Notes: generated by a model from the letters alone, not told the origin. Positions 1 to 39,592 are shown, counted from the stretch's first letter. The stretch is DNA of 50,998 nucleotides from an uncultured Acidimicrobiia bacterium (GCA_964633745.1 CAZWHZ010000004.1:1-50998), one strand, 5' to 3'. Program-made: numbers and translations.

Positions 1-57
1 CCTTCTCTATGCGATCAATAATCGGCCCGACTCGTTGGGTGCTTGAGGGGTTTGGGG

Positions 58-1119
58 CTAGGGCAGCACCCCGTCTCTCTTCGCCTGCGCCTTGAACGCC
101 TGGAATTCCTCGTAGGTCGCTGCGAACGAGTGTCCCCCGTCCGAGCTGGTGAGCACGTAGTAGAGGTACTCCGTGATCGCAGGGTCCGCGGCCGCCGCGA
201 GACTCGCCAGTCCTGGGGCGTCGATCGGCGTAGGTGGCAGTCCCAGATTCCGATATGTGTTGTAGGGGGAATCTGTGTCGAGGTCCTCTGCCGTCAGCCC
301 GATGCCACGCTCCCCCATCGCATACAACACGGTGGCGTCGATCTGCAGCGGCATGCCGATTGCCAACCGGTTGACGATTACGCTGGCGATCAGAGGACGA
401 TCCACGTCGAGTTTCGCCTCCGCCTCGATCATCGAAGCGATGATCACTCCATCTCGGACGCCGTAGCCCATCTCCTCGAGAGGACTCCAGTCCACTGAGG
501 CAACGCGGTCCTCCATCGTCGATGCGAGGCGTTGGAGGATCTCACGAGGGGTCGCGTCACCCGTGAACTCGTACGTGTCCGGGAATAGGCCCCCTTCCCA
601 GCCTTGGAAGCTGCTTCCTCCGAATCCCAAGGATGAGCTCACGTCGACGAGCGCCTCCGCGAACTGCTCCCTGGTGTACGGCGTCTGCTCTGCGAGACGA
701 TCGAGGATTTCCGACACGCGCAGGCCCTCGTGGATCGTCACGCGATAGGCGTCCGACTCGGGCCCGGCCAGCAGCACATCCAGGGCCTCTCCAGCTGTCA
801 TCCCCGTTGTGAAGCTGTAGTTTCCTGCCTGAAGGCGATCCCCGACTCCGCCGGTTCTCACGGCGAGCTCGAACGACAGCGAAGAATCGATCACGCCGGC
901 CCGGGCAAGTTGCTCCCCGATCTGACGAGCCGATGATCCTTTCGTCACCTCGAGTCGCAGCGGGAGACCGGGGACGATTCCCGCGGGTGCCGTGATGTCC
1001 GGCGGACTTCCGAGCTGTCCCGCCCAGTTGGCGAGCCCGCGTCCCCCCAGGACCGCTGCAACACCGACGGCGATGATCGCAAGGGCAACCGATATGGCTC
1101 TGCCCGCTCCGCTCTTCAC
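58..1119 (-). CDS. mltG: Endolytic murein transglycosylase, YceG/MltG family
   Basis: 353-aa ORF. N-terminal TM helix (AISVALAIIAVGVAAVLGG). YceG-type core IASMIEAEAKL...VNRL...PLQIDATVLYA. GTG start overlaps the ruvX stop (GTGA). Same position as in the actinobacterial alaS-ruvX-mltG synteny. Confidence 0.85.
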   Translation of the reverse strand: MKSGAGRAISVALAIIAVGVAAVLGGRGLANWAGQLGSPPDITAPAGIVPGLPLRLEVTKGSSARQIGEQLARAGVIDSSLSFELAVRTGGVGDRLQAGNYSFTTGMTAGEALDVLLAGPESDAYRVTIHEGLRVSEILDRLAEQTPYTREQFAEALVDVSSSLGFGGSSFQGWEGGLFPDTYEFTGDATPREILQRLASTMEDRVASVDWSPLEEMGYGVRDGVIIASMIEAEAKLDVDRPLIASVIVNRLAIGMPLQIDATVLYAMGERGIGLTAEDLDTDSPYNTYRNLGLPPTPIDAPGLASLAAAADPAITEYLYYVLTSSDGGHSFAATYEEFQAFKAQAKRDGVLP

Positions 1120-1514
1120 GTGCCCGTCCCCAGGTACCCCTCGAGAAGCAATGCTGCGGCGACCTTGTCGACGACGTCCTTGCGACGCTTGCGACGTACC
1201 CCACCTTCGAGCAGCGCCCGTTGCGCATCGGACGTCGTGAAGCGTTCATCGATCATACGAACGGCGATGCCTGTGAGCTGCTCCACGCGTCTCGCGAACT
1301 CCCTCGCCGCGACTGCCGAAGGCCCTTCGGTGCCGTCCAGGGACGTTGGTAGCCCCACGATGATCTCATCGACGTCCTGAACGAGGTCGGGAAGGCGTGC
1401 ATCGAGATCGCCGACGAAAACCACATCGAGCGGCTGCGCGGTGATACGAAGTGGATCTGACACGGCTACGCCGATGCGAACGGTTCCATAGTCCAGTGCG
1501 AGAACGCGGCCCAT
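1116..1514 (-). CDS. ruvX: Putative pre-16S rRNA nuclease / Holliday-junction-resolvase-like YqgF (RuvX)
   Basis: N-terminus MGRVLALDYGTVRIGVAVSD matches the YqgF signature. ATG at 1514 shares 1 nt with the alaS stop (TGATG). The track start at 1517 is a TTG one codon upstream. Confidence 0.85.
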   Translation of the reverse strand: MGRVLALDYGTVRIGVAVSDPLRITAQPLDVVFVGDLDARLPDLVQDVDEIIVGLPTSLDGTEGPSAVAAREFARRVEQLTGIAVRMIDERFTTSDAQRALLEGGVRRKRRKDVVDKVAAALLLEGYLGTGT

Positions 1515-4129
1515 CAACCCAACGCTCTTCCCGCCGCATCTCTGATCGCGTCGAGGGCCTCAGAGAGGCGATCAGCGTTGGGGCCGCCGGCCTGAGCCAG
1601 CTCAGGATCTCTGCTTCCACCTCCACCCAGGATCCGAGCTCCGGGCATGAGCAGTTCAGCTGCAGAAACGCCGCGAGACACGAGATCGGCGCTCAGTACC
1701 GCGACCAGTGCGCCCTTGCCACCTGCGGCGCTGCCAAGCACGACGACGCCCCGTCCCAAGCGATCTCTCAGCGTAAGAGCCAGACCTCGCAGTTGCCCCG
1801 GCGGAACGTCCTCCCTGGCGGCGACCAGCACCTTGACGTCTCCAATCACCGTGGCCTCATTCACGAGTTCTCCTGCCTCTTCGGCTTGGAGTTTCGCTCG
1901 GAGTGTGGACGCCTCCTCTTCCAAGGATCTCATCCGCTCGAGGAGCTGCCGGACCCTGGCCGGGACCTCCTCCGGCTGTGCTCTGAGGAGCTGACCGGTC
2001 TCACCCAAGCGACGGCGCAGCCCGGCCAGATAGTCGTATCCATGATCCCCGGAGTACGCCTCGATCCGGCGGAGGTTCGAGCCGACCGACGACTCACCGA
2101 GAATCACCAACGGGCCGACCTGACCAGATGATGGTGTGTGCGTTCCCCCGCACAACTCCTTCGAGAAGTCACCGATCTCGACGACGCGCACAACATCCCC
2201 GTACTTGTCGCCGAAGAACGCAAGCGCTCCGAGGTCGCTCGCATGGTCCATGGAGGTGTTGAACGTGTGTACGTGGGAATTCGCGATCACTCGCTCGTTT
2301 GCGATCCGCTCGATCTCGGCGAATTCCTCGTCGGCCAATCCGCCGAAGTGACTGAAGTCGAACCGCAGGCGGCCGGCCTCCACCCGAGACCCGGCCTGAT
2401 GGACGTGATCGCCGAGCACACTCCTCAGTGCCCAATGCAGTATGTGTGTGCCCGTATGGCTCTTCGAGATCGCTTCCCTCCTCGGGGAGTCGACCATCGC
2501 CTCCACCTGATCCCCAACTCGCATCTCGCCCGTGACCACTTTCACATGGTGCGAGACGAGCCCAGGAACGGCAGCCTGGGTGTCGGTCACGACGCCTCGG
2601 GCGCCGGGAGTCTGGAGAAAGCCAGAGTCTCCGACCTGGCCGCCCGCCTCGGCGTAGAACGGGGTTCGGTCGAGAAAGACTTCCACGGCCTGGCCCACAC
2701 TCGCCGAGTCGACCGACTCGCCATCTCGCAGCATCGCGACAACCGTGGAACCGGCCACGAGTTCCGAGTACCCAAGGAACTCCGATGGCCCGATCCCGTC
2801 GAGGAGCCGCCGGTACACGCCTTCGTCGGCAGCTTCCTCGGCCCCCTTCCACGCCGATCTGGCCCGCTCACGCTGCTCGTCCATCGCCTGTTCGAACGTT
2901 TCCATATCGACGCTCACGCCCTGTTCAGAGGCGATCTCCGTGGTCAGCTCTACCGGAAACCCGTACGTGTCGTGCAGTTTGAAGGCCACCGAGCCCGCGA
3001 GACGATCGCCTTCTGTGAGCCCGGCAAGGGCTTCATCCAAGAGGTTGTGTCCTGAAGACAGGGTTGCGCGAAACCGATCCTCCTCTCGGCTCACGACGTC
3101 CTGGATGAAGCTCTCCTTCTCGACCAACTCCGGGTACCCCGACCCGAGGATCCGAACGGTCTCTTCGACAAGGAGCGGGGTGATCAGCGAGCTGCCCCCG
3201 AGGCGCCAGGCATGACGAACGGCGCGACGAAGCACCCGCCGCAGCACGTAGCCCCGGCCCTCGTTGGACGGGACAACACCATCGGCGATCAGGAACGTGA
3301 TCGCCCTGCCGTGGTCGGCCAGCACGCGCAACGACACGTCGGTCAGAGGATCCTTGCCGTAGGCAACCCCGGAGTGACGTTCCGCAACGGCGAGAATCGG
3401 CCGCACGGTATCGATGTCGAACACCGTCGCTTTGCCCTGGAGCACCATCGCGATCCGCTCCAGCCCCATGCCTGTGTCGATGCTCTTGGCCGGCAGGTCT
3501 CCAACAACATGGTACGGCTGGTCCTGTACGTACTGCATGAACACGAGGTTCCAGATTTCGACGAATCGATCTTCATCGACCGCTGGGCCCCCGTCGGCCC
3601 CATACTGCGCGCCCCGGTCGTAAAAGATCTCCGAAGACGGGCCTGCGGGCCCCGGTACACCCATCTGCCAGAAGTTGTCCCGTCCCCGGCGTTGCACACG
3701 GTCAGGTCGGGCTCCGACGTCGTCGATCCATATGCCTGCTGCCTCGTCGTCGCTCTCGTGTACGGTGAACCAGAGGAACTCCGGGTCGATCCCGAAGCCT
3801 TCCGTTACCAGCTCGTACGCGTACGGGATTGCCTTCTCCTTGAAGTAGTCGCCAAAGCTGAAGTTTCCGAGCATTTGGAAGAACGTGAAGTGGCGCGCCG
3901 TCGTACCGATGATGTCGATGTCGACGGCGCGAAAGACCTTCTGCACCGACGTCGCACGCGGGTATGGCGGCGTCTCCTCACCGAGGAAGTACGGCTTGAA
4001 TGGCACCATTCCTGCGTTGGTGAGGAGCAGGGTGGGGTCAACGGGTATGAGCGACGCCGAAGGACGGACCTCGTGGCCCCGTTCCTCGAAGAAGCGCAGA
4101 AACGACGAACGAATGCGTGCTGATTCCAT
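1514..4129 (-). CDS. alaS: Alanine--tRNA ligase
   Basis: 871 aa. FLRFFEERGH, PSASLIP, FTNAGM-like and FEMLGNFSFGDYFK-like (FQMLGNFSFGDYFK) class II AlaRS motifs. HTGTH editing-domain motif. C-terminal DHHA1-like region. Confidence 0.96.
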   Translation of the reverse strand: MESARIRSSFLRFFEERGHEVRPSASLIPVDPTLLLTNAGMVPFKPYFLGEETPPYPRATSVQKVFRAVDIDIIGTTARHFTFFQMLGNFSFGDYFKEKAIPYAYELVTEGFGIDPEFLWFTVHESDDEAAGIWIDDVGARPDRVQRRGRDNFWQMGVPGPAGPSSEIFYDRGAQYGADGGPAVDEDRFVEIWNLVFMQYVQDQPYHVVGDLPAKSIDTGMGLERIAMVLQGKATVFDIDTVRPILAVAERHSGVAYGKDPLTDVSLRVLADHGRAITFLIADGVVPSNEGRGYVLRRVLRRAVRHAWRLGGSSLITPLLVEETVRILGSGYPELVEKESFIQDVVSREEDRFRATLSSGHNLLDEALAGLTEGDRLAGSVAFKLHDTYGFPVELTTEIASEQGVSVDMETFEQAMDEQRERARSAWKGAEEAADEGVYRRLLDGIGPSEFLGYSELVAGSTVVAMLRDGESVDSASVGQAVEVFLDRTPFYAEAGGQVGDSGFLQTPGARGVVTDTQAAVPGLVSHHVKVVTGEMRVGDQVEAMVDSPRREAISKSHTGTHILHWALRSVLGDHVHQAGSRVEAGRLRFDFSHFGGLADEEFAEIERIANERVIANSHVHTFNTSMDHASDLGALAFFGDKYGDVVRVVEIGDFSKELCGGTHTPSSGQVGPLVILGESSVGSNLRRIEAYSGDHGYDYLAGLRRRLGETGQLLRAQPEEVPARVRQLLERMRSLEEEASTLRAKLQAEEAGELVNEATVIGDVKVLVAAREDVPPGQLRGLALTLRDRLGRGVVVLGSAAGGKGALVAVLSADLVSRGVSAAELLMPGARILGGGGSRDPELAQAGGPNADRLSEALDAIRDAAGRALG

Positions 4130-4141
4130 GGGCGTTCCAGG

Positions 4142-4330
4142 TTAGTTGGGGCGCCGGGCCAGACGGGTCCCACCGGCGTCGAGCAGATCCGCGACGACCA
4201 AGGCGCCGCTGCGGGCAAGATGCGCCGGCGTCAGCGCCACCTTCGCTCGCTCGATTCGTCTGAGTACGCGAATGGTTCCCCAGGCACCCGCGAACGCACC
4301 CGCGGCGAACCACCACAGTCTGACCATCAT
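4142..4330 (-). CDS. Small hypothetical membrane protein
   Basis: 62-aa ORF fills the rarA-alaS gap on the same strand. It has one hydrophobic helix (LWWFAAGAFAGAWG) followed by a basic stretch. No recognisable family. Confidence 0.4.
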   Translation of the reverse strand: MMVRLWWFAAGAFAGAWGTIRVLRRIERAKVALTPAHLARSGALVVADLLDAGGTRLARRPN

Positions 4331-4339
4331 GCGGGAAGG

Positions 4340-5671
4340 TTAGCGCTCCCTCCCAGGGTCCTGCCCGGCCGTCCACCTCTGGACGCGTTCCGCAATCTCC
4401 CGTTCTTCTCCCTGTGTTCCAGGTTCGAAGAGGCGCGCGCCCTCGAGCTCATCGGGAAGGTACTGCTGCACCACGAAGTGTCCTTCGTAGTCGTGGGGAT
4501 AGCGGTACTCGGTCCCGTGACCGATCTTCTGAGCGCCCTTGTACGAAGCATCCCTGAGGTGTGCCGGCACCTCGGCCCCGGGTGTCCTCTCCACGGCTTC
4601 CTTTGCCCGAGCGATCGTCGTGGCCATGGTGTTCGATTTGGGCGCCGTAGCGAGGTAGGTGGCGGCGTGGGTCAACGCATAGCCTGCTTCCGGGAGCCCC
4701 ACGTATGCCAGGGCCTGGGATGCCGCCACGGCGATTGGCAGCGCATGCGGGTCGGCGAGTCCTACGTCCTCGGAAGCGAAGACGATCATGCGCCGCACGA
4801 TGAACTCTGGATCCTCTCCGGCCTCGAGCATCGTGTGTAGCCAGTAGGCGGCTGCATCGACGTCCGAACCCCGCATGCTCTTGATGAACGCCGAGATGAC
4901 GTCGTAGTGACGATCCCCGGACTTGTCGTAGCGCACGATCCGTCGCTGGAGCGCCTCAGCGACGTCGCCCTCGGTGATCCCCGTCCTCCCCGCCCCGATC
5001 GCGAGACCGGCTGCCACCTCCAGACCATTCAGAACCAAGCGAGCATCGCCCCCAACTCTCTCGGCCAGCGCCACCCGGGCATCGTCATCCAGTGTGAGCC
5101 CCTGTCCCCCGAGACCCCGCTCCGAGTCGCCCAGCGCGCGCTCGAGGAGGATTTCGAGATCGGTGGATTCAATGCCTTCGAGCCGGAACAGGCTCGCTCG
5201 CGACATCAGAGGCGAGTTCACCTCGAAGAAAGGATTCTCGGTCGTGGCACCGATCAGGACGATCGTCCCGTCCTCCACTCCCGGAAGCAGTGCATCCTGT
5301 TGCGACTTGGAGAATCGATGAATCTCATCGAGGAATAGCACGGTCCGCCGCTCTTCCTCGCCGAGGCGGCGATCAGCTTCCTCGAGAACCCTGCGTACAT
5401 CGCGCACCCCGGCCGAGGTAGCAGAGAGCTGCTCGAACCATGCCGAGCCTGCGGCCAGACGGGCAAGGGTCGTCTTCCCTGTACCCGGTGGACCCCACAG
5501 GATCATCGACATGGGCCGCCCCGACTCGATCAGTCTCCGGAACGCCGAACCTTCACCAACCAAGTGCCGCTGGCCGACGACCTCCTCGAGGCCTGTTGGA
5601 CGCATCCGGGCGGCGAGTGGAGCGACGTGCGCCTTCACCTCCGCCCGGTGGGCCTCGAAAAGGTCCCCCAT
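4340..5671 (-). CDS. rarA: Replication-associated recombination protein A (AAA+ ATPase, MgsA/RarA)
   Basis: 443 aa. Walker A GPPGTGKTTLA, Walker B VLFLDEIHRF, C-terminal MgsA domain (YDVISAFIKSMRGSD, AAYWL). Confidence 0.93.
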   Translation of the reverse strand: MGDLFEAHRAEVKAHVAPLAARMRPTGLEEVVGQRHLVGEGSAFRRLIESGRPMSMILWGPPGTGKTTLARLAAGSAWFEQLSATSAGVRDVRRVLEEADRRLGEEERRTVLFLDEIHRFSKSQQDALLPGVEDGTIVLIGATTENPFFEVNSPLMSRASLFRLEGIESTDLEILLERALGDSERGLGGQGLTLDDDARVALAERVGGDARLVLNGLEVAAGLAIGAGRTGITEGDVAEALQRRIVRYDKSGDRHYDVISAFIKSMRGSDVDAAAYWLHTMLEAGEDPEFIVRRMIVFASEDVGLADPHALPIAVAASQALAYVGLPEAGYALTHAATYLATAPKSNTMATTIARAKEAVERTPGAEVPAHLRDASYKGAQKIGHGTEYRYPHDYEGHFVVQQYLPDELEGARLFEPGTQGEEREIAERVQRWTAGQDPGRER

Positions 5672-5672
5672 G

Positions 5673-7430
5673 TCAGTCCCCTGCCTTCACCTCCGGTCGG
5701 AGGGCGATACCGAGCTCCTGGAGCTGTTCGTCGTCGACCGGTGTCGGAGAGCCGCTCATCGGATCGGTTCCCGTTTGCGTCTTTGGAAATGGAATGACCT
5801 CTCGAATGGATCGTTCTCCCTGGAGGATCGCCAGGAGGCGGTCGATGCCCACGGCGAACCCCGCATGTGGAGGCGTACCGAATCGGAGGCCTTTCACGAA
5901 CCAGCCGAACCGCCGTTCCGCATCTTCCGGTCCGATCCCGAGGATGTCGAACACCTGTTGCTGCACGATCGGATCGTGAATCCTGACGCTCCCGGATCCC
6001 AGTTCCGACCCGTTGAGAACGAGATCGTACGACTTCGAGATCGCCGTCTCGGGCGAGGTCCGCATCTCATCGACATCGATGGGCGCGGTGAACGGGTGGT
6101 GTGCGGGTGACAAGCTTCCGTCGTCGTTCACGTCGAATACCGGAAAGTCGATGACCCAGAGGAACGCCAGCTCTTCGTGGTCCTTGGGTTGCCCCAGTTC
6201 CAGCCGAAGTTGTCCGAGAACGCTGCCTGCCAGCTTGGAGGTGTCGGCGACGAGCAGCAAGAGATCCCCCGGCGTGCCATCGAGGGCTTCGATGATCGAT
6301 CTCTGTTCCCCGTCGGACAGAAACTTGGCGATGGACGAACGCAGGCCATTCTCCTCGACGACGAGCGACATGAGGCCCTTGGCGCCCAAGGCCCGTGCCC
6401 GATCGGTGAGCGCGTCCATGGCCGACCGAGACAAGCCGACGGCACCGACGTTGATACCCCTGACGACGCCCCCACCGGCCACTGTCGAGGCAAACACGTC
6501 GAATGCCGATCCACCGACCAGAGAGCTGATGTCGTGAATTTCCATGCCGAAGCGAAGATCTGGCTTGTCTGTCCCGTAACGATCCATGACATCGGAGTAC
6601 GTCAGGCGTCGGAAGGGCGTTGGTACCTTCATTCCCCGCACCCGCTCGACGACCGCCGAGATGACCTGCTCGAGTGTCTCGAAGACTTCCTCTCGCCCCC
6701 AGAAGGCACCTTCGAGGTCGAGTTGGATGAACTCGAGCTGTCTGTCGCTCCTGAAGTCCTCATCGCGATAGCACCGGGCGATTTGGTAGTAGCGGTCGAC
6801 GCCGGCGACCATGAGGAGCTGCTTGAACAGCTGCGGAGACTGTGGGAGCGCGTAGAACGAGCCTTTCCGCAGACGCGACGGCACCAGCACGTCGCGGGCA
6901 CCCTCGGGTGTCGATCGGATGAGAGTGGGCGTGTCGACATCCATGAATCCCAGCCCATCGAGTACCTCCCGCATCGCTCTGAACGCGGCCGAGCGGGCGC
7001 GAAGATTGGCCGCCATCCGTGGGGTGCGGAGGTCGAGGAATCGGTACTCGAGGCGAGTACGCTCGTCGACGTCCACCCGATCGTCGAGCATGAACGGAAG
7101 GGTCTCCGATGCCGACAGCACGGTCAGCTCATCGACGGCGATCTCGACCATACCCGTTGGCATCTCCGCGTTCTGGGTGCCTTCGGGCCGCGCCCGAACG
7201 ACCCCATGGAGCGAGACGACGTACTCGAGCTTGAGCTTGTGAGCTTCGGGGAACTCCTCAGGATCGATGACCGCTTGCACGATGCCCGAGGCATCCCGAA
7301 GATCGATGAAGATGATGGCGCCGTGGTCGCGGCGGCGGTCGACCCAGCCGGCGACTCTGACGGCTTCTCCGGAACGTTCGTCGCTCACGTGTCTTGCGTA
7401 CGTGTCTCGATAGACATCTACCTGAGCCAT
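5673..7430 (-). CDS. aspS: Aspartate--tRNA ligase
   Basis: FIDLRD, QSPQLFKQLLM, FRDEDFRSDRQ-like and GGGxxRxxM-type class IIb motifs. I start at the internal ATG 7430 (MAQVDVYRDTY), which is preceded by GAGGAGG. The track start at 7508 adds 26 Arg/Gly-rich residues overlapping hisS. Confidence 0.95.
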   Translation of the reverse strand: MAQVDVYRDTYARHVSDERSGEAVRVAGWVDRRRDHGAIIFIDLRDASGIVQAVIDPEEFPEAHKLKLEYVVSLHGVVRARPEGTQNAEMPTGMVEIAVDELTVLSASETLPFMLDDRVDVDERTRLEYRFLDLRTPRMAANLRARSAAFRAMREVLDGLGFMDVDTPTLIRSTPEGARDVLVPSRLRKGSFYALPQSPQLFKQLLMVAGVDRYYQIARCYRDEDFRSDRQLEFIQLDLEGAFWGREEVFETLEQVISAVVERVRGMKVPTPFRRLTYSDVMDRYGTDKPDLRFGMEIHDISSLVGGSAFDVFASTVAGGGVVRGINVGAVGLSRSAMDALTDRARALGAKGLMSLVVEENGLRSSIAKFLSDGEQRSIIEALDGTPGDLLLLVADTSKLAGSVLGQLRLELGQPKDHEELAFLWVIDFPVFDVNDDGSLSPAHHPFTAPIDVDEMRTSPETAISKSYDLVLNGSELGSGSVRIHDPIVQQQVFDILGIGPEDAERRFGWFVKGLRFGTPPHAGFAVGIDRLLAILQGERSIREVIPFPKTQTGTDPMSGSPTPVDDEQLQELGIALRPEVKAGD

Positions 7431-8641
7431 TCCGAAACCTCCTCGACAGGTACCGCTCGCTGGTCTCCCGTCGTCATGTCCCTGGCGGTCACCGCCCCGT
7501 CGCGCCATTCCTCGCCGATCACCAGGACATTCGGCGCTTCTCGACGAGAGGCGATCTTGAACTGCGCTTTGACCGACCGCCTGTCGGGGTCATAGTCGAC
7601 TCGGAACCCTCGAGCACGCAAATCGGAGACCAGCTCGATCGCTTCCGTCCGCAATCCCTCTTCGGCGACGACCACGAAGACGTCTAGAGCCCCTTCTTCG
7701 ACGATGTCTCCCAGAGCGAGAACGATACGGTCCAGCCCCAATGCGAAGCCCACGCCAGGGATGGGGGGCCCTCCGATGGACTCGGAGAGACCGTCGTACC
7801 TCCCTCCGCCACCAACCGCGTTCTGTGCAGCGTCGAGATCGGTCGCGATGTACTCGAACGCGGTCCTCGTGTAGTAGTCGAGCCCGCGTACGAGGTGAGG
7901 GTCTTCCACGAAGGGGACGAGTACCGCTCCCAGAGTGTCCTTCACCGTCTGATAGTGGACAGCACACGCATCGCAGAGATGTTCGACCGGGGTTGGGGCG
8001 TCCCGCAGAAGGGGCTTGCACACCTTGCAGTCCAAGACGCGCAGCGGATTACTGTCGATTCGCCGGCGACTATCGTCGCAGAGTTCATCCTCACGGGCCT
8101 TCAGGTACTCCTTCAAGACTTCCTGATACGCAGGACGGCAGACCGGGTCACCGATCGAGTTGATGGTGACGGCCACGTCGACCAGTCCCACGTCGCGCAG
8201 GTACCGATATCCGAGTTCGATGACCTCCGCGTCCGCCAGGGGTGAGTCGGTACCGATGTACTCGGCGTCGAGTTGGTAGAACTGCCGCCGCCGACCGGCT
8301 TGGGGCCGTTCGTACCGAAACATCGGACCCCAGCTGGCGGCCTTGCGCACTCCGCTGCCTCCTGCCTGCTGGTGAGCGCGCATGACAGAAGGTGTCGCCT
8401 CCGGCCGCAAGGTCAGTGACCGGCCACCCTTGTCGCTGAATGAGTACATCTGCTTCTGGACGATCTCCGTGTCTTCTCCGGAGCCCCTCGCAAACAGCTC
8501 TGTGGCCTCGAAAAGCGGTGTGAAGATCAGGTCGTATCCGAAGCGTTCAGTGATTTGATCCCATGTGCGGAGCATCCTGCGCCATGTTCTGGCTACCGGC
8601 GCCAGGATGTCATCGGTACCTTTGGGTGCACGGATGGTCAT
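7418..8641 (-). CDS. hisS: Histidine--tRNA ligase
   Basis: MTIRAPKGTDDIL N-terminus, and FRYERPQAGRRRQFYQ motif 2. ATG 8641 overlaps the stop of the upstream MBL gene (ATGA). The 74-aa track extension overlaps that gene and is rejected. Confidence 0.95.
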   Translation of the reverse strand: MTIRAPKGTDDILAPVARTWRRMLRTWDQITERFGYDLIFTPLFEATELFARGSGEDTEIVQKQMYSFSDKGGRSLTLRPEATPSVMRAHQQAGGSGVRKAASWGPMFRYERPQAGRRRQFYQLDAEYIGTDSPLADAEVIELGYRYLRDVGLVDVAVTINSIGDPVCRPAYQEVLKEYLKAREDELCDDSRRRIDSNPLRVLDCKVCKPLLRDAPTPVEHLCDACAVHYQTVKDTLGAVLVPFVEDPHLVRGLDYYTRTAFEYIATDLDAAQNAVGGGGRYDGLSESIGGPPIPGVGFALGLDRIVLALGDIVEEGALDVFVVVAEEGLRTEAIELVSDLRARGFRVDYDPDRRSVKAQFKIASRREAPNVLVIGEEWRDGAVTARDMTTGDQRAVPVEEVSEWLR

Positions 8642-9276
8642 AACAGATCTCGGAGGAACGGGTTGCTGCGACGTTCGGCCCGCATCGTAGTCGCGGGTCC
8701 GTGACCCGGGTATACGATGGTTTCGTCCGGTAGTGGCAGGATCTTCGTTCGCATGCTGCTGAGGAGTTCCGCCATGTCCCCGCCCGGAAGATCCGTTCGT
8801 CCGATCGACCCTGCGAAGAGGTGATCGCCGGAGAGCAACCGTCCCTCGACCATGAAGCAGCAATGCCCTGGCGTGTGCCCTGGCGTGTGAATCACCTCTA
8901 TGTCGAGGCCGCCCAATGCGAGACGTGTGCCATCGAACAGTCGTTCCACACGGTCCGGCGCAGGCAGAGAGGCTGATTCAGCGCCGAAGAGCGCCCTGAG
9001 TTGCGTCGCTGGGTCGAAGGTGAGGAAGTCATCGTCGGGATGCACGTACGCGCTGATCCCTGCACGTTGGCATATGTCGAACGAACCGCCGGTGTGATCG
9101 ACGTGCCCGTGTGTGAGGAGCAATGCCACCGGAGCGAGCCCGTTTCGTTCGACGAGCCCCAGGACGGCGTCGGGATCAGGCGGAGCGTCTACGATCACGC
9201 AAGGCCCTCCCCGCTCTCGCGCGACCACGTAGGTGTTGGTTCGCGCAATCCACAGACATTCGGATTCGATCAGCAC
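8638..9276 (-). CDS. MBL-fold metallo-hydrolase (glyoxalase II-like)
   Basis: 212 aa. HxHxDH motif THGHVDHTGG, later HTPGHTPGH and a GD..F region. Same position as the glyoxalase II-like gene next to hisS in mycobacteria. Confidence 0.85.
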   Translation of the reverse strand: MLIESECLWIARTNTYVVARERGGPCVIVDAPPDPDAVLGLVERNGLAPVALLLTHGHVDHTGGSFDICQRAGISAYVHPDDDFLTFDPATQLRALFGAESASLPAPDRVERLFDGTRLALGGLDIEVIHTPGHTPGHCCFMVEGRLLSGDHLFAGSIGRTDLPGGDMAELLSSMRTKILPLPDETIVYPGHGPATTMRAERRSNPFLRDLL

Positions 9277-9314: not shown

Positions 9315-10748
9315 CTAGGAACTACACCCCAGCGGCCCCGGAGGAACCTCACGCCATATCCGAGGCTGGGGAATGAACTGATCGGCTCCAGCGGGATCAA
9401 AACTGAACACGCCTTGAATCGAGTCGTTCATCGGACGGAAGTGCACGTAGGAACGCTGTCCCTGATTGCCGCCCTCTCCATAGATCGTCCCGTAGATCAC
9501 CGAGTTGTTCACGGTCGCGACGGTTCCGGCCGAGTAGCCGAGGAAGTGGATGTCCTCCGTTCCTGTCATCGTGAAACCTTGGGCCATGAACAGGGACTTG
9601 TCCGAGGCACCCACGACGACCGCGACCGACACCGGCGTGTCGCTCGAGTCTGTCGTGACGTTCTGCCACTTCGTCACGTCAGCATCACCGTTGGGCACAT
9701 AGATCACGACATCCCCGTGGAATTCGGTCTTGCTGAACTCGATCGAGACATCACCGTCGGGCATCCGGTAGCTGGTTGTCTGCCCCGCCACACCCAACTC
9801 GGACGGCGCCCAGTTGCTGTCCGCCACGAGCTGCTTGTTGGGGGAGGTGCTCCACTCGAATGTCGGGAGCGCCAATTCGGTTACGGGTGTCCAATCGACT
9901 CCTGTGAGCACCTCGTTCACCCCGCTCAGATCCCCACCGGGAGCGGACGTATCACGCATATTCAGACTGCCGACAACAGTCGGCTCCTTCAAGTAGCTGG
10001 CCGAACCGCCGATGGAGACGTCCGCCTGGTAGAGGGTGTTCTTCTTGTTGTCGTTCAGATCACCATTCACGCGAACTGGGCCGGCAAACTGGCTTGCAGC
10101 GTTCTTAGCGACGGTCATGTCTCCGACGACACCAACGGATCCATCCCCTGGCCACGGGATGTCGTTGGCGAGGATGGTCGTCGAGTTGGCGACGTCGAAG
10201 TCGCCCGCGCTGTACACGTCGCCCCAGATCTTCTTGTTGTTCCCGCCGGCGTATCCACTCAGGCCGGTGAACACAGCAAAGTCGAAGCCGCCTCCAAAGG
10301 GTCGAAGTTCGATCTCGAAGTCGATCTCCTTCTCGGACTGTAGGCGAGCATCGTGACTTGGTGCCCAGCCCCACGCTTCTATCCGGTAGCGAAGGTCGAA
10401 ACCCGGCGTCTTTGTGACTCTCACCCAGTACTCGCCCAACTGATCCGACGCCGTTCCTGAGGAGTCGATACGGTCGTAGACGCAGGCATTCCCTTCCGGG
10501 CTGGTCGTGTAGACGGCTCCGGACACTTCCAACGAATCGCGAACAGTCTTGTCGTTTGCGAGGACGTACATCATCTCTCTTGCGCCCGCCTCGGCCGAAT
10601 TCAAGGCCATCGCTGCAGCTCGATCCCCCGCTGCCTGGTCGATCTCGTGTGTACTGATCCCGTACCACAGCGCAGCCAGGATGAACACCACGAACGAAAT
10701 CATCAGAGCCGTGATCAACCCAAAGCCTTCTTCGTGCCGGAGTTTCAC
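9315..10748 (-). CDS. PilX/GspK-like minor pilin (pseudopilin) with large beta-rich C-terminal domain
   Basis: Prepilin-type N-terminus (V)KLRHEEG|FGLITALMISFVVFILAALWYGIS. It has no Glu at +5 (Thr instead). About 440 further residues are rich in G/N/D/S/T/V. Preferred start is GTG 10748, which overlaps the upstream stop (GTGA) and gives an 8-aa leader like the two neighbours. The alternative ATG 10778 gives an 18-aa leader. The track start at 10961 is rejected. Confidence 0.7.
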   Translation of the reverse strand: MKLRHEEGFGLITALMISFVVFILAALWYGISTHEIDQAAGDRAAAMALNSAEAGAREMMYVLANDKTVRDSLEVSGAVYTTSPEGNACVYDRIDSSGTASDQLGEYWVRVTKTPGFDLRYRIEAWGWAPSHDARLQSEKEIDFEIELRPFGGGFDFAVFTGLSGYAGGNNKKIWGDVYSAGDFDVANSTTILANDIPWPGDGSVGVVGDMTVAKNAASQFAGPVRVNGDLNDNKKNTLYQADVSIGGSASYLKEPTVVGSLNMRDTSAPGGDLSGVNEVLTGVDWTPVTELALPTFEWSTSPNKQLVADSNWAPSELGVAGQTTSYRMPDGDVSIEFSKTEFHGDVVIYVPNGDADVTKWQNVTTDSSDTPVSVAVVVGASDKSLFMAQGFTMTGTEDIHFLGYSAGTVATVNNSVIYGTIYGEGGNQGQRSYVHFRPMNDSIQGVFSFDPAGADQFIPQPRIWREVPPGPLGCSS

Positions 10749-11308
10749 GAGCAGCTCCCTCCTTGCATCGGAGCCCATATGTTCCGTCCCGATACTTCCG
10801 TCTCGGCCAGGCGACGGCCAATCCGGTCTGTGGGATCCGCGTCCGACCAAATCGATATCGTTACGACCTTCCCCTCGCTCGGCGTCCCTCCCGCCGACCC
10901 CTGTGTCGCGAACAGCGGTTCCGACGATGCGTTGACCACATCGTCGATGACCGTACGCCATGCCGATCCGCCATCGGAGGATCGTTCGAGCGTTCCGTCC
11001 GTCAACCTGTAGATGATGTGCTGCTGGGACGTCTCGGCTCCTGCATATGCGCGGGTGGTGAAGTCCAGCGTGTTAGAGGTGGTGCACGGCAACGGCTCGT
11101 AGATCGCGTCGGCAGATCGAAGTTCCCGGCTGATTTGCCTGAGAACGAGACGGGAACTGTCGTTCGACGCGGCAACCCCTTGGAAGTCCTTCGTCACTGT
11201 GAAGCTCGTCGACAGGGCGGTTCCGAACACTGCCGCAACCATCACCATGAGGGCCATGGCGATCAAGAGCTCGATCAGGCTGATACCCTTGTCATTCATG
11301 CCTTTCAT
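10745..11308 (-). CDS. Prepilin-type N-terminal cleavage/methylation domain protein (PilW/GspJ-like minor pilin)
   Basis: 187 aa. MKGMNDKG|ISLIELLIAMALMVMVAAVFG has a short basic leader, Gly at -1, Glu at +5 and a hydrophobic helix about 20 residues long. ATG overlaps the upstream stop (ATGA). Confidence 0.8.
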   Translation of the reverse strand: MKGMNDKGISLIELLIAMALMVMVAAVFGTALSTSFTVTKDFQGVAASNDSSRLVLRQISRELRSADAIYEPLPCTTSNTLDFTTRAYAGAETSQQHIIYRLTDGTLERSSDGGSAWRTVIDDVVNASSEPLFATQGSAGGTPSEGKVVTISIWSDADPTDRIGRRLAETEVSGRNIWAPMQGGSCS

Positions 11309-13194
11309 GAGAGCTCGGGATTGATGTAGACGGCCGTCGCCTGCACGCCTCCCGCCGAGAAGGTCAAGGTGAAGTCGTACAGAGTCGCCAGATCCTCGTC
11401 GCCGAACTCCTCAGCACCGATCACGTCGACGACTCGATACGTGAGCGTTCCCGTGACGATGTTCGCCGCCGACACGGTGTTCGATCGAACTTCCCCGGTC
11501 GAGTACTGCTGCGTGGTTCCGACGCACATGCCGTTCACGGTCACGCTGCCGGAAACCCGATAGTGAAGCTGTGGCATCCCGGCTGTCGACGTTGTGAGTT
11601 CCTCGTCGACCGGGAGCGTCTCGGAGCTGCAGTTGGGAATGTCTTCGTAGCTGCTGAAGATCTGGGTGTAGGAGCTCCCATTCCATAGGTCGATCGTCAC
11701 ATCTCCACTCTTCACACCGATTTGGGGAGTCAGGGCGGAGTAGTACTCGCCCGCTTCCAGGGGCGCCAGGGCTCCCCCATTGCTGACCCTGGGCAGCGAG
11801 ACCACTGCCCATCCCCTGAAAGCCGGTGCCAGCGCTGCGAGGACCTCGTCGTCCAGAAGGTCGATCTCCTCACCCTTCCAATCGAACTCGGCTCGTGCCT
11901 TCCGCAGCCCGGTCGCGGGGTCATCTTGCCTGTCGCTTTCGCCGCTCCATTCCAGCGAAGATGCCTGATCGTGATCCCCGTATCTGAAGAAGGTGAAAGC
12001 GTAGGAAGTAGAGAGCAACGGGTCACCTTTGTCCACATACGCCTGTGCCGGGTCACCCGACCAGTCTTCTGTGCGGCTCATGCTCGTCTGGCCCGCGCCC
12101 ACCACCGACAGAGAAGCATTCGGCAGGTCGTCTGCAGGGTCTACGGCTGCGGCGCCTCCGGGGATCGGAACAGCCGTGTGGTTCTTCACCAGCGGACCGG
12201 CCGATTCCTGGATTCTCACAGCGTCCTGCGTGGTATCCATCCGGGGCAAGTCGACCTGAGCGATCAGCGGATAGCTCAGTGGAGCCGAGGATGTACCGTC
12301 GTCGTCCGCGAACAGGTTGATCACGTTCTGGTCAGAGGTCGCGAGCCGCACGTCGTCCAAGCTCGGCGATCCGATCAGCCCGTCAGGGCCGGCCCCGATC
12401 CAGTACGCAGATGCTCCCTCCAGCCGGGCTTCTCCGACCGACACGTAGTCGGACGTGGCAGTCAGACGCATCGATGGCAAGGAAGCGAGAATCGACTCAT
12501 CTTCAGAGCCGTCGTGCGGTAGTCCCCAGCCTTGCATCCCGGTCACTCGGCCCTCGACCTGACCGTAGCCCCCATCAAGGCTGGACTCGGCCGAAATGAA
12601 GGGCTGCGATGGTTCGGTGAAAGGGCTCACGTATGAGGAGAGCCGAACCTCTCGTCTATGTCCGTTCGAAGCACTCCAGCGAACCACGGCGGTAATCCTC
12701 CGGTACTTCTCGGTCGCGGGATCGCTGTTGTCGCTTCTGACCGACGTGATGAACAAGTATCGGTCGAATACCGTGTTGTCCCTGATCACTTGCTGATGGA
12801 ACGACAGGAACGGATCGAATGTTGCTCCCGTGGCAAACACGATCGGCTCGCCGCCAAACTCGTACGTGCTGCCACTCGCGGCGATTTCGGAGGCGAACTC
12901 GGTGACGAACAACGAACAACCCACGCCCTGGGGAGGATCGCTTGGTGAGGCCGGTTCGGTGCAGTTGGCACTGTTGGCATCAACCGTAAGCCCCATGTTC
13001 GACCACTCGAGAGAACGGGCGCGCTCTACGAGCTCCGAGGCGAGTGCCGACGCCGCAGATTGGCGCTTGGTCTCAATGAGCACCCTCGAACTCGTGTCGA
13101 TGCTTCGCAACATCACGAGCACAGCCCCGAAAATGATCACGAGCGCCACGAGCGCCTCGATGATCGTGAATCCTTCTTCGCGCGAAAGCCGCAT
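11305..13194 (-). CDS. Prepilin-type N-terminal domain protein (PilV/GspI-like head) fused to a long C-terminal extension
   Basis: 629 aa. MRLSREEG|FTIIEALVALVIIFGAVLVML has Gly at -1, Phe at +1 and Glu at +5. The first ~190 aa end in a PilV-like RRITAVVRWS strand. About 430 more residues have no motif I recognise. Confidence 0.75.
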   Translation of the reverse strand: MRLSREEGFTIIEALVALVIIFGAVLVMLRSIDTSSRVLIETKRQSAASALASELVERARSLEWSNMGLTVDANSANCTEPASPSDPPQGVGCSLFVTEFASEIAASGSTYEFGGEPIVFATGATFDPFLSFHQQVIRDNTVFDRYLFITSVRSDNSDPATEKYRRITAVVRWSASNGHRREVRLSSYVSPFTEPSQPFISAESSLDGGYGQVEGRVTGMQGWGLPHDGSEDESILASLPSMRLTATSDYVSVGEARLEGASAYWIGAGPDGLIGSPSLDDVRLATSDQNVINLFADDDGTSSAPLSYPLIAQVDLPRMDTTQDAVRIQESAGPLVKNHTAVPIPGGAAAVDPADDLPNASLSVVGAGQTSMSRTEDWSGDPAQAYVDKGDPLLSTSYAFTFFRYGDHDQASSLEWSGESDRQDDPATGLRKARAEFDWKGEEIDLLDDEVLAALAPAFRGWAVVSLPRVSNGGALAPLEAGEYYSALTPQIGVKSGDVTIDLWNGSSYTQIFSSYEDIPNCSSETLPVDEELTTSTAGMPQLHYRVSGSVTVNGMCVGTTQQYSTGEVRSNTVSAANIVTGTLTYRVVDVIGAEEFGDEDLATLYDFTLTFSAGGVQATAVYINPELS

Positions 13195-13273
13195 GAGGTT
13201 GCTATCGGCCTGAACCAGCGAATCACTTAGAGAAACGTGGGATCATCACAAAGAGGCGCGGAGTGTCTAGTCC

Positions 13274-15433
13274 TCAGCGCGGTACCAGTCGATACGCGTG
13301 GTAGACACCATCGATACCGTTGAGCCCAACGACGAGCCGGTCGAGTTGGCCGGGGTCCGACAACTCGACCTCATAGCGGAGAAGTGCGGTCCGATCGCTG
13401 CTGGTGGTGGACGACGACGCGCGGATGTCGCCGCCTACCTCTGAGATGCACTCGGTGACATCACGCAACATGCGCGGTCGATCGAGCGCTTCGATTTGGA
13501 TCCACACAGAGAACCTTCCCGCCCTGTCAGGTGCCCATGTGACGTCGATCATTCTCTCCTCACCAAGAGCATCGATGTTCGTGCAGTCCGAACGGTGCAC
13601 CGACACACCCCGGCCGACTGTCACGAACCCGATGATGTCGTCACCGGGAACGGGGGCACAGCACCTCGCTATACGCACCCATACGTCCTCGAGGCCCTCG
13701 ACGATGATCCCAACACCCGTGTCCGAGCGTGGCCGAACCGGCGGCAGCTCGGGCAGGGCGGCCTCTGCAGCCTCCTCCTCCTCGGGCCTCGCGAGTCGAA
13801 CGACGCGCGCCACGACGGTCGAGGCTGCAACTCCCCCCTCGCCAACCGCGATGAACAGGGAGTCCACGTCCCGCTGCCCCATTCGTTCGGCAACCCCCTT
13901 GAGGAGTTCGTCTCTCCGATTCGAGTGCAGCCCAAGGCCCTCCTTGCGAAGCAGGGCCAGCACCGCATCACGTCCCTTCTCGAGAGCCGCAACCCGGCGC
14001 TCCTTTCCGAACCATTGACGGATCTTGGCCCTTGCCCGGGAGGTGCGTACGTACGTCAGCCAGTCCCTGCTCGGACCCGAGTCCTGCGCCTTGGAGGTGA
14101 CGATCTCGACGATATCGCCCGACTCGAGTCTCGTGTCGAGCGGAACGAGCCGGCCGTTCACCTTCGCCCCGATACATCGATGCCCCACCTCAGTGTGCAC
14201 GCTATAGGCGAAGTCCACCGGCGTAGCTCCCCGCGGGAGGGTCTTGACTTCTCCCTTCGGCGTGAGGATGAACACTTCCTCTTGGTAGAGATCTATTTTG
14301 AGACCGGCCAGGAACTCCGTCGGATCCTCGTACTCGTCCTGCAGGAACCGCATGTCGGCGATCCATGGAAGGGACTCGGCCGTCTCCCCTTCCTTGTACC
14401 GCCAGTGCGCGGCGATGCCAAACTCGGCACGCTCGTGCATGTCCCTCGTGCGAATCTGCACCTCCAGAGGGCCTCCACCGGGCCCGATCACGGTCGTATG
14501 CAAGCTCTGGTAGAGGTTGAACTTGGGCATGGCAACGTAGTCCTTGAACCGCCCATGAACGGGAGGCCACGTCGAGTGGATGACGCCTAGCACCGCATAG
14601 CAGTCACGGACATCCTGCACGATCAGCCTGATCCCTATGAGGTCGTGAATGTTTTCGAACGGGAGCCCGCTGGTCACCATCTTCCGGTATATCGAGTACT
14701 GGTGCTTCGGACGGCCCGTCACCTCACCTTTGATACCTGCCGAATCGAGGAGATCCTTGACCTTCTCGATGACGTCATCGAGGAAGGCTTCACGCATGGG
14801 CGCCCGCTGCTCGAGAAGGGCGTTGATCTCGGCGTTCCGTCTCGGATACAGGATGGCGAAGCACCTGTCTTCCATCTCGTGCTTGATTTCCTGAACTCCG
14901 AGCCGGTGCGCCAGTGGGGCGTAGATCTCGAGACTCTCTCTGGCAATCCGCTGTTGCTTCTCGTCTGGGAACGGCCAGATGGTCCTGAGGTTGTGCAACC
15001 GGTCGGCGAGCTTGATCAGGAGAACCCTCACGTCCTTTGCGAGAGCGACCACCAGCTTCCGGATCGTCGCCGCCTGTGCCTCCTCCCGTGATCCGAACTT
15101 GATCAGGTCCAGTTTCGTGACGCCGTCGATCAGTTCTGCGACGTGGCCACCGAATTGCCCCGCCACCTGATCGAGGGTCAGCTCCGTGTCCTCGACCGTG
15201 TCGTGCAGCAATGCTGCACACAGCGTCTCGATGTCGAGCCCGTAGTCGGCGAGTATTTCGGTCACAGCAACCGGGTGGGTGATATAAGGATCCCCCGTCT
15301 GTCGCATCTGCCCCTCGTGCCGATCCTTGGCCAGCGTATAGGCCTCGGTCAGCAGCGTCGTGTCAACACCAGGATGGTGGGCGCGAAACGAATCGAGAAC
15401 CCGCTGGATCCCCTCCTGAGAGAGGTCAGGCAT
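13274..15433 (-). CDS. relA: Bifunctional (p)ppGpp synthetase/hydrolase Rel (RelA/SpoT homologue)
   Basis: 719 aa. HD hydrolase motif (HPVAV...LLHDTVEDT), synthetase motif [16 protein letters not shown] and ACT C-terminal regions. Confidence 0.96.
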
Positions 15434-37646: not shown

Positions 37647-38591
37647 GTGAGCAGAGTAGGTCTTATCCTCGGGGGTGGAGGCGTAACCGGCGCATCCTTT
37701 CATCTCGCGGCATTGCTCGCGCTGGAAATGGCAACCGGGTGGGATCCCACCACGGCCGACGTCATCATCGGTACTTCTGCTGGTTCGTTTGCTGCCGCGG
37801 TGGTTCGCTCGGGCAGCCTCTCTTTGGACAGCATCGTCCGCCCAGGAGAACGGGAAGAGGACGTTGAACGGCGCATCCGCGCGTGGATCTACAAGAAGAA
37901 ACCCCTGAACGGGGTCGGTCGTTGGTTGCGGCACGGAATCCTCCCCGGTCTGCGGCACCCCGGCGTTACGTCGCTGCTCGGTGCGCCTGGACGCTTCGAT
38001 CCATCGGGAATCGGAGACTGGGTTGCCTCCCAGGCCCCGTCCATCGCCGACAGCTGGCCGGATCGACCGACTGTCGTGGTCGCCTACGGTCTCGAGGACC
38101 GCCGCAGAATGGCGTTTGGCACGACCGACGCCCCCGATGTGACGCTCCGTGATGCCGTGTCGGCCTCCTCCGCGGTGCCGGTACTCTTCGACCCCCACAT
38201 CATCAAGGGCAAGAGCTACGTCGATGGGGGGGTCGCTTCGGGAACCAACGCCGATCTCGTTCTCGGCAACCCCGAGCCACTCGACCTGCTCTTGATCCTT
38301 GCACCGATGGCAGCGGAAGCTCAGAGGAGCGGTGCCCTCTTCTACGAAGCCGTGTTCGACCGTGTTGGACGCTCTGCGCTTCACGATGAACTCGAGGCGG
38401 TGGCAACGGTGTGGCCAGACACCGACACACTCGTGCTTCGTCCAACCTCAGCCGTACTCGCCGCCATGCGGCCCAATCCGATGGATCCGGCGCGTGCGGT
38501 GCCGACTTTCGTGCGCACGCTGGCGTCGCTCCGCTCCCGACTCGCCCGGGCCGAGGTGTGGCAGGTTCTCGAGCGTCACCTGGTCGCCTGA
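37647..38591 (+). CDS. Patatin-like phospholipase
   Basis: 314 aa. Oxyanion GGGGVTG, nucleophile elbow GTSAGS (GxSxG), catalytic Asp in YVDGGV. GTG start 14 nt after the preceding ORF. Confidence 0.85.
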   Translation: MSRVGLILGGGGVTGASFHLAALLALEMATGWDPTTADVIIGTSAGSFAAAVVRSGSLSLDSIVRPGEREEDVERRIRAWIYKKKPLNGVGRWLRHGILPGLRHPGVTSLLGAPGRFDPSGIGDWVASQAPSIADSWPDRPTVVVAYGLEDRRRMAFGTTDAPDVTLRDAVSASSAVPVLFDPHIIKGKSYVDGGVASGTNADLVLGNPEPLDLLLILAPMAAEAQRSGALFYEAVFDRVGRSALHDELEAVATVWPDTDTLVLRPTSAVLAAMRPNPMDPARAVPTFVRTLASLRSRLARAEVWQVLERHLVA

Positions 38592-39571: not shown

Positions 39572-39592
39572 TGCTCACTTCTCTTGCCGGCT

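Follow-up and report, generated by a model that had tools for sequence, protein, structure and literature searches.

A minor-pilin trio in uncultured Acidimicrobiia, probably the initiation and tip set of a type IVa pilus encoded past the contig end

The 50,998-nucleotide (nt) stretch of DNA analyzed here (GCA_964633745.1 CAZWHZ010000004.1:1-50998; hereafter the window) comes from an uncultured Acidimicrobiia bacterium and carries three consecutive minus-strand genes, here called gA, gB and gC, inside the conserved rel-hisS block of housekeeping genes. We conclude, with a probability of about 0.8, that the trio encodes the minor pilins for initiation and tip (PilI/J/K, equivalent to GspI/J/K and PilV/W/X) of a type IVa pilus that is retractile, lacks a secretin and has its machinery encoded ~9.3 kb downstream. 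Carrying this conclusion are the genes themselves, the conserved residues of their signal peptides, their co-inheritance, the pilus machinery of the same genome and the adjacency of distant homologues to pilB, together with a ComZ-like fold predicted for gC. From these we infer the processing of the three proteins, their assembly into a heterotrimer, their location at the pilus tip and the existence of a ligand. The trio is a new lineage-specific version of already known minor-pilin sets. As called from open reading frames (ORFs), and with a slash following Gly-1 of each N-terminus, the three genes are:

gA, 11305-13194, minus strand: 629 amino acids (aa), N-terminus MRLSREEG/FTIIE
gB, 10745-11308, minus strand: 187 aa, N-terminus MKGMNDKG/ISLIE
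gC, 9315-10748, minus strand: 477 aa from GTG, N-terminus VKLRHEEG/FGLIT

An earlier note on this DNA had described three minus-strand ORFs, each with a basic leader ending in Gly, coupled by ATGA and GTGA. All of this is present in the window, where gA and gB overlap by ATGA at 11305-11308 and gB and gC overlap by GTGA at 10745-10748. The GTG start of gC agrees with the starts of its homologues, which read M-x4-[DE][DE]G; Prodigal-type calls on sister contigs begin gC at an ATG 30 nt further upstream, giving 487 aa. Inspection of the six-frame window translation with a prepilin regular expression (G, a hydrophobic residue, E at +5) reveals two matches versus 0.14 in triplet shuffles, and an expression of the gC type gives one match versus 0.01 expected. 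All three matches are the N-termini of gA, gB and gC.

The same positions are conserved across each family. Alignment of gA with 27 homologues (34-78% identity) indicates that G8 and F9 hardly vary and that E13, the Glu at +5, is invariant, with two Cys and much of the first 200 residues conserved as well; the 51 homologues of gA span about 610-820 aa, and none contains a Pfam domain. G8, E13 and a C-terminal GRN-W...C motif are invariant in the gB family (21 sequences), and the gB N-terminus retains G/x[ST]LxE across loci. For gC, the N-terminus retains [DE]xG/[IFVM]G[ILVM]x[TS]AL across loci, where position +5 is Thr in the window protein, T or S in all homologues and never Glu. That is to say, gA and gB have the features of class III signal peptides, and gC has G-1 with T or S at +5. 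The earlier claim of Glu at +5 in the first two proteins and Thr in the third is thus how the sequence reads, and the family alignments agree. GspK/PilX-type subunits lack Glu at this position. Conserved Cys pairs occur in gA, gB and gC, which fits exported proteins.

Within the window, no pilus machinery gene was found by Pfam annotation of sister contig L001 and two Pfam scans covering most large ORFs, and six-frame scans for the T2SSE Walker A and A24 GxGD motifs found none in the window or the first 31 loci. These empty scans at first suggested a true orphan, a view that was changed by the distant relatives of gC described below and by a look-up of YceG, the product of the window-terminal gene (58-1119). 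The look-up returned contig L075, which is 99.92% identical to window positions 1-3561 (3 mismatches) and continues past position 1. Its source run, SRR11828907, also yields the trio contig L003. Two further contigs, L077 and L078, confirm the junction between the window and the pil genes, and on the overlapping contigs the next gene, encoding PatA_N, begins ~8 nt beyond window position 1. Beyond the window, L075 encodes on the trio's strand PatA_N, PilB, a PilT-like ATPase, PilC, two pilins, PilD, PilM, PilN and PilO, and the region from gC to these genes is laid out as follows:

Window 58-9276, minus strand: housekeeping block of eight genes in the trio's direction (Pfam of identical sister contigs, ORFs)
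Window 1-57, minus strand: intergenic DNA past the yceG stop (overlapping contigs L075, L077, L078)
L075 3569-4513, trio's strand: PatA_N, 314 aa
L075, trio's strand: PilB, 561 aa, MshEN and T2SSE domains
L075 6251-7789, trio's strand: PilT-like ATPase, 512 aa, MshEN N-domain, AIRNLIREGK motif
L075, trio's strand: PilC, 405 aa, T2SSF domain
L075, trio's strand: two PilA-type pilins, 158 and 150 aa, N_methyl
L075, trio's strand: PilD, 257 aa, A24_N_bact and Peptidase_A24 domains
L075, trio's strand: PilM, PilN and PilO, the last genes read on the contig

The gC stop is separated from the first machinery gene by ~9.3 kb and eight housekeeping genes, which encode an MBL-fold hydrolase, HisS, AspS, an MgsA-like AAA protein, a 62-aa ORF, AlaS, RuvX and YceG/MltG. 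The type IVa machinery set (PilB, PilT, PilC, PilD, PilM/N/O and major pilin) is present in full on L075. PilB of this contig has a best match of 63% among the returned proteins, and a homologue search found PilB to be abundant in Acidimicrobiia. No secretin was seen, and none is expected in a monoderm. Relatives compare as follows: on L039, where gC is 81% identical, PatA_N lies at the same ~9.3 kb from gC; on L031, PatA_N lies ~9 kb upstream of the trio on the opposite strand; and the 2.63-Mb Acidimicrobiia contig L074 (GCA_046331155.1) reads mgsA-alaS-ruvX-yceG-aroE-PatA_N-pilB, the same block as the window end.

These data bear directly on the earlier description of the trio as an orphan, set apart from any filament machinery and unusual for that reason. 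The statement that 51 kb hold no machinery is literally true inside the window but is an artefact of the contig end, and the orphan status falls with it, since patA_N-pilB-pilT-pilC-pilA1-pilA2-pilD-pilM-pilN-pilO begins just past the edge on the same strand. The earlier note had further staked a pilin identity on prepilin peptidase and filament machinery being present in the genome; PilD and the machinery were found, which favors that identity. Nor is the arrangement unusual: it is normal for type IVa systems to keep minor-pilin operons apart from pilB, pilC and pilD, as Pseudomonas does with fimU-pilVWXY1E. Several minor-pilin clusters per genome are also known, for example in Myxococcus (PMC7541494). 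As a general caution, an "orphan" module 9-13 kb from a contig end may have its partners past that end.

Distant homologues place the trio beside pilB itself. On L034, L035, L036 and L062, a homologous trio lies directly upstream of pilB. Two of these gC homologues, P0071 and P0072, are the most distant gC relatives (28% identity), and their trios on L034/L035/L036 lie upstream of the MshEN plus T2SSE ATPase; L034 is an Acidimicrobiia metagenome-assembled genome (MAG). On L062, a 26-kb contig, the trio is contained in a complete pil cluster, with pilO, a pilM-pilN fusion and pilA on one strand and gA'-gB'-gC'-pilB-pilT-like-pilC with a GGDEF-EAL gene on the other. Comparison of gA with gA' aligns the pilin module (BLASTP E 9e-17) but not the C-terminal domain, gB aligns with gB' at E 9e-16, and gC shares 25-28% identity with the pilB-adjacent gC.

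The three genes are also inherited together, as the earlier note had required of them: the trio is kept in order at all related loci of sufficient length, and tblastn over L007-L031 gave gC identities of 30%-83%. Scanning GTDB species genomes yielded 21 loci, 18 of them titled as Acidimicrobiia, Actinomycetota or Actinomycetes MAGs and 3 just as "bacterium". Relatives from a metagenome scan, down to 24% identity, have the same three N-terminal motifs in order. Two trio subfamilies emerge, one adjacent to pilB and one in the rel-hisS block. The rel-trio-MBL-hisS arrangement is found in several lineages (window, L008, L033 and L037; 33-100% identity). On L007/L013 and L014/L032, the trio lies between a rhodanese gene and ClpS, and on L010 it lies among two-component genes. 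These differing neighborhoods across lineages indicate that the trio cassette moves as a unit.

Individual loci of the family show further features. The trio on L033 (10001-15611) looks degraded, with gA split into 554 and 121 aa, the gC region fragmented into several ORFs that surround a Transposase_mut gene, and a resolvase and a DDE transposase upstream; either true decay or faulty assembly may explain this damage. On L007/L013 (3957-6161), a long-read MAG, gB and gC share a single stop-free frame of 714 aa that is either a frameshift artefact or a genuine fusion. L008 has an extra 172-aa gene after gC (14650-15168) with a weak match to TSP3_bac, a calcium-binding repeat.

The AlphaFold2 model of gC, built with 18 homologues, has a predicted local distance difference test score (pLDDT) of 85.7 and a predicted template modeling score (pTM) of 0.74, and begins with a long helix at 7-65 (alpha1) and a small sheet; the beta-solenoid occupies ~159-440, and a last strand lies at 457-468. 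Foldseek comparison of the model with the PDB returns ComZ chains of 6QVI as the top three matches (E 1.9e-9 to 1.2e-7, probability 1.0), followed by tapirin adhesins and ice-binding beta-helices. At the level of sequence profiles, gC of the window has no Pfam match, PilX_N (PF14341) included, and no N_methyl match, and its family profile has no PDB match past the N-terminal helix. Distant family members give weak matches to PilX_N, DUF7305 and Bactofilin. At 50% identity, the gC family profile gathers 911 clusters, of which 280 reach E ≤ 1e-10, and PilX_N matches four of ten sampled clusters at E ≤ 0.01, one of them above the gathering score of 25.5 bits (P0309, 26.9 bits); the relatives P0208 (23.7) and P0071 (16.8) score below it. 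With no Glu5 and, in the model, a pilin fold with an inserted beta-solenoid, gC is probably a PilK-type cap pilin.

Inspection of gB points to a small pilin in the PilJ position. It scores 25.0 bits against Pfam N_methyl, passing the gathering score of 21.2, and 16.8 against TIGR02532 (cut-off 16.3); 20 of the 21 family members match N_methyl. The match to T2SSJ (PF11612) is 13.5 bits versus a cut-off of 28 and is shared by 1 of the 21. From its position, its size and this one weak T2SSJ match, gB would be a PilW/GspJ (PilJ-type) minor pilin. The gB family profile has no PDB match past the N-terminal helix apart from a weak Asp-box match, to the Asp-boxes of dispase autolysis-inducing protein. 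Residues ~109-120 of gB (RSSDGGSAWRTV) contain a single BNR/Asp-box-like motif, S-x-D-G-G-x-T/A-W, and Pfam BNR weakly matches 3 of the 21 members.

The largest protein, gA, resembles PilI/GspI/PilV-type pilins and is modular. Its layout comprises a class III signal peptide, alpha1, a small pilin head (~60-200) and a beta-rich C-terminal domain of ~430 residues, and its AlphaFold2 model (pLDDT 75.8) has a helix at 11-62 followed by a head of poor definition, and the all-beta region at 200-629 is modeled with confidence. Scores of gA are 18.0 bits against Pfam N_methyl (PF07963; gathering score 21.2), 25.4 bits against NCBIfam PilV (TIGR02523; curated cut-off 52.2) and 15.5 bits against GspI (TIGR01707; curated cut-off 44.35), with further weak NCBIfam matches to ComGE and XpsI. 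The same models recur across the 27 family members, with ComGE in 24, PilV in 19, XpsI in 18 and GspI in 10, every match below its cut-off. Foldseek comparison of the full-length model with the PDB returned only porins, beta-propellers and the like at a TM-score of 0.1, which we judged meaningless, and the family profile has no PDB match past the N-terminal helix. The C-terminal domain is the one truly uncharacterized element of the trio. In the hidden Markov model searches that the earlier note had called for, then, gB passes N_methyl, gA gives weak PilV, GspI and ComGE matches below cut-off and gC of the window gives none.

The end of gA (window 11305-11350, ...GGVQATAVYINPELS) is among the best conserved parts of the family; these last ~15 residues are recognizable even in the pilB-adjacent subfamily (GRVTTRATYQPAPA) and are a candidate inter-subunit beta-strand. 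A gA subclade of 780-820 aa (P0040, P0043, P0047) has an insertion of ~190 residues in the C-terminal domain.

Taken as the tip set of the adjoining pilus, the trio would act as follows. All three proteins would be inserted into the membrane via their class III signal peptides and cleaved by PilD after Gly-1, following which gA and gB would be N-methylated. Their alpha1 helices would then assemble into a GspI-J-K-like heterotrimer on the PilC/PilMNO platform. Because it has no Glu5 and its bulky beta-solenoid could not fit within the filament body, gC would cap this complex, as proposed for ComZ and GspK. With PilB polymerizing the major pilin under the complex, the trio would come to sit at the tip of the pilus. 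Since no PilY1/PilC gene was seen, the gC solenoid and the gA C-terminal domain are likely binding modules, for a surface, a polysaccharide or DNA, and would replace a separate PilY1/PilC adhesin.

A more speculative extension concerns gA. Background for it comes from PilY1/PilC, whose C-terminal strand completes the PilK sheet in a recently described licensing role (PMC13533445). We suggest only tentatively that gA is a modular PilI-type pilin of a new kind that replaces a separate PilY1/PilC adhesin, where the ~430-residue beta-rich domain would be the receptor-binding module and the gC sheet would receive the C-terminal strand of gA (...GGVQATAVYINPE), which would serve, as a matter of speculation, the same licensing role as the PilY1/PilC C-terminus. 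If true, the trio would be a self-contained, three-protein tip and licensing complex.

Several observations weigh against assigning the trio to the tip of this pilus. The window proteins fall short of every curated minor-pilin model (PilV, GspI, GspJ/T2SSJ, PilX_N), and the only curated cut-off reached within the trio is that of gB for the generic N_methyl motif. The match of gC to ComZ has a global TM-score of 0.31-0.34 at ~10% identity. The GspJ/PilW call for gB is based on size, position and that single T2SSJ match, the pilin head of gA is modeled at low confidence, and its C-terminal domain is without a known relative. Linkage of the trio to the pil genes consists of a 3.5-kb overlap of metagenome contigs at 99.9% identity rather than a single closed genome, and on L010 and L014/L032 there is no machinery within 10 kb of the trio. 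The earlier assignment to a PilV/W/X- or GspI/J/K-like set is supported as to type, with the third protein a Glu5-less cap, but misses the curated cut-offs.

Of the alternatives, the best surviving, although unlikely, is that the same proteins make up the tip not of an adhesive or motility pilus but of a DNA-uptake pilus for competence, where gC would receive DNA in the manner of ComZ, or of a short pseudopilus serving secretion. Structurally, gC indeed comes closest to a competence pilin: ComZ is known to bind DNA and has a neighboring minor pilin as its partner. ComGE, moreover, is the most frequent match in the gA family. However, the DNA-binding lysines of ComZ are unmappable at this level of identity, and similar beta-solenoids serve cellulose adhesins (tapirins) and ice binders too. 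The adjoining cluster encodes a retraction ATPase of the PilT type along with two pilins of the PilA type, as is usual for general type IVa pili, and neither comEA nor comEC was seen in the regions read.

It is rather improbable that the trio works with another type IV filament system whose genes lie elsewhere in the genome (Tad or another pil/com system), as one of several paralogous sets of the kind found in Myxococcus. The existence of two trio subfamilies, pilB-adjacent and rel-hisS-block, the lineages in which the trio lies far from any machinery seen and the precedent of multiple minor-pilin clusters per genome (PMC7541494) could all be read in this way. No second system was seen, however, and the ~9.3 kb spacing recurs on L039. 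The adjoining pilB-pilO cluster, furthermore, is without minor pilins of its own, the two PilA-like genes apart, and so needs a set such as the trio.

Very improbable is the other possibility raised in the earlier note, namely that the trio is truly orphaned and acts on its own at the surface, its products being anchored or surface proteins outside any filament. The machinery-free 51 kb and the large non-pilin domains of gA and gC speak for it, but machinery including PilD is next door in the same genome, homologous trios sit inside pil clusters and the invariant Glu+5 of gA and gB is required for filament assembly rather than for anchoring. That the N-termini are ordinary Sec signals or transmembrane anchors with a coincidental pilin likeness, the outcome that the earlier note had set against its own reading, is effectively refuted already: gA and gC do miss the Pfam and NCBIfam cut-offs, but the motif recurs three times in succession where 0.14 and 0.01 are expected and is conserved to 25% identity, gB exceeds the N_methyl gathering score, the gC fold is ComZ-like and the family is linked to pilB.

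The remaining observations concern the DNA around the trio and the pil genes. Upstream of gA lies the following spacer:

relA-gA spacer, 13195-13273, minus strand: 79 nt, 53% GC versus 63% for the window

The spacer is thus relatively AT-rich, as had been noted earlier. It contains one sigma-70-like site (TAGACA-16-GATGAT with TG), a possible promoter of the trio, although 1.0 such site is expected in shuffles and the site is therefore no evidence taken alone; the scan for promoters and terminators as a whole yielded chance levels only. GC content at third codon positions (GC3) is 0.74-0.75 for the trio and equals that of the neighboring genes, so that the trio is taken as native to the conserved rel-hisS block. 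Horizontal transfer of the trio was considered and ruled out, as GC and GC3 match the neighbors.

In this lineage and its relatives, the gene just before pilB encodes a PatA_N (PATAN) domain protein (L075 3569-4513, L074 8886-9887, L039 14307-14984, and L031 689-9 on the minus strand). PATAN-domain regulators act on PilB in cyanobacteria, and the PatA_N protein is likely a regulator of the pilus motor. PilT-type ATPases of 512-530 aa on L075 (6251-7789) and L062 (13035-14627) combine AIRNLIREGK with an N-terminal MshEN domain, which normally marks PilB-type extension ATPases. On L074 (10001-21506), PatA_N-pilB is followed not by pilT-pilC but by a type I CRISPR-Cas system (Cas3, Cas_GSU0053, a Cas4-Cas1 fusion and Cas2), and the pil cluster of this contig is interrupted or rearranged. 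Elsewhere in the window, an adenosine deaminase ORF (38576-39571, minus strand) and the longest amidohydrolase ORF (39107-40978, plus strand) converge and overlap by ~460 nt; the amidohydrolase domain begins at residue 234, so the true start of that ORF is probably far downstream.

Type IV pili of Actinomycetota are barely studied, above all in the uncultured Acidimicrobiia that abound in soil, sediment and water, and we found no literature specific to Acidimicrobiia pili. Source annotations give the trio proteins no name at all or list them as "hypothetical protein" or "PulG". Once the trio is recognized as a conserved set of PilI/J/K type, in which a solenoid cap resembling ComZ is joined by a large modular pilin, the parts list of this monoderm pilus is complete, and attention turns to the likeliest determinants of its binding specificity.

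Several known systems resemble the trio in part. Like the Verru_Chthon cassette A-D (TIGR02598/TIGR02599), it is a lineage-specific, co-inherited, prepilin-type cassette annotated apart from machinery, and weak matches exist (TIGR02598 in 3 of 27 gA members; TIGR02599 on gB, E 0.8). It differs in occurring in other phyla and in having three genes instead of four, with scores far below cut-off and homology limited to the N-terminal helix. The modular pilins PilB and PilC of Streptococcus sanguinis (PMC8179133, PMC9934059) share with gA a pilin module joined to a bulky domain and a monoderm host, but the domain grafted onto gA is neither a vWA nor a lectin module and has no PDB match.

ComZ of Thermus thermophilus is a pilin with an inserted beta-solenoid and a pilin domain closest to GspK; it binds the neighboring minor pilin PilA2 as well as DNA, and its position at the pilus tip has been argued on steric grounds (PMC6561018). 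As in the ComZ-PilA2 system (6QVI; PMC6561018), gC is predicted to combine a long alpha1 and a pilin sheet with a large beta-solenoid resembling ice-binding proteins, is encoded beside smaller minor pilins and is of a size that argues for the tip. In contrast to that system, the host of the trio is a secretin-less monoderm actinobacterium, any DNA binding by gC would be by analogy only, and the partner gA, at 629 aa with an extra domain, is unlike the small pilin PilA2.

Another close parallel is the GspI-GspJ-GspK trimer at the pseudopilus tip of type II secretion, together with PilV/PilW/PilX of type IVa pili; proteins of this kind prime assembly (PMC7541494, PMC13533445, PMC5979040). The trio operon lacks a PilY1/PilC adhesin gene and a FimU/GspH-like fourth gene, and gA differs from GspI and PilV by its extra C-terminal domain of ~430 residues. 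Shared with these sets are three co-transcribed pilin-like genes, the first with GspI/PilV-type matches, the second small and the third, gC, without Glu5 and largest in its head region, and a role at the tip or in initiation would be shared as well.

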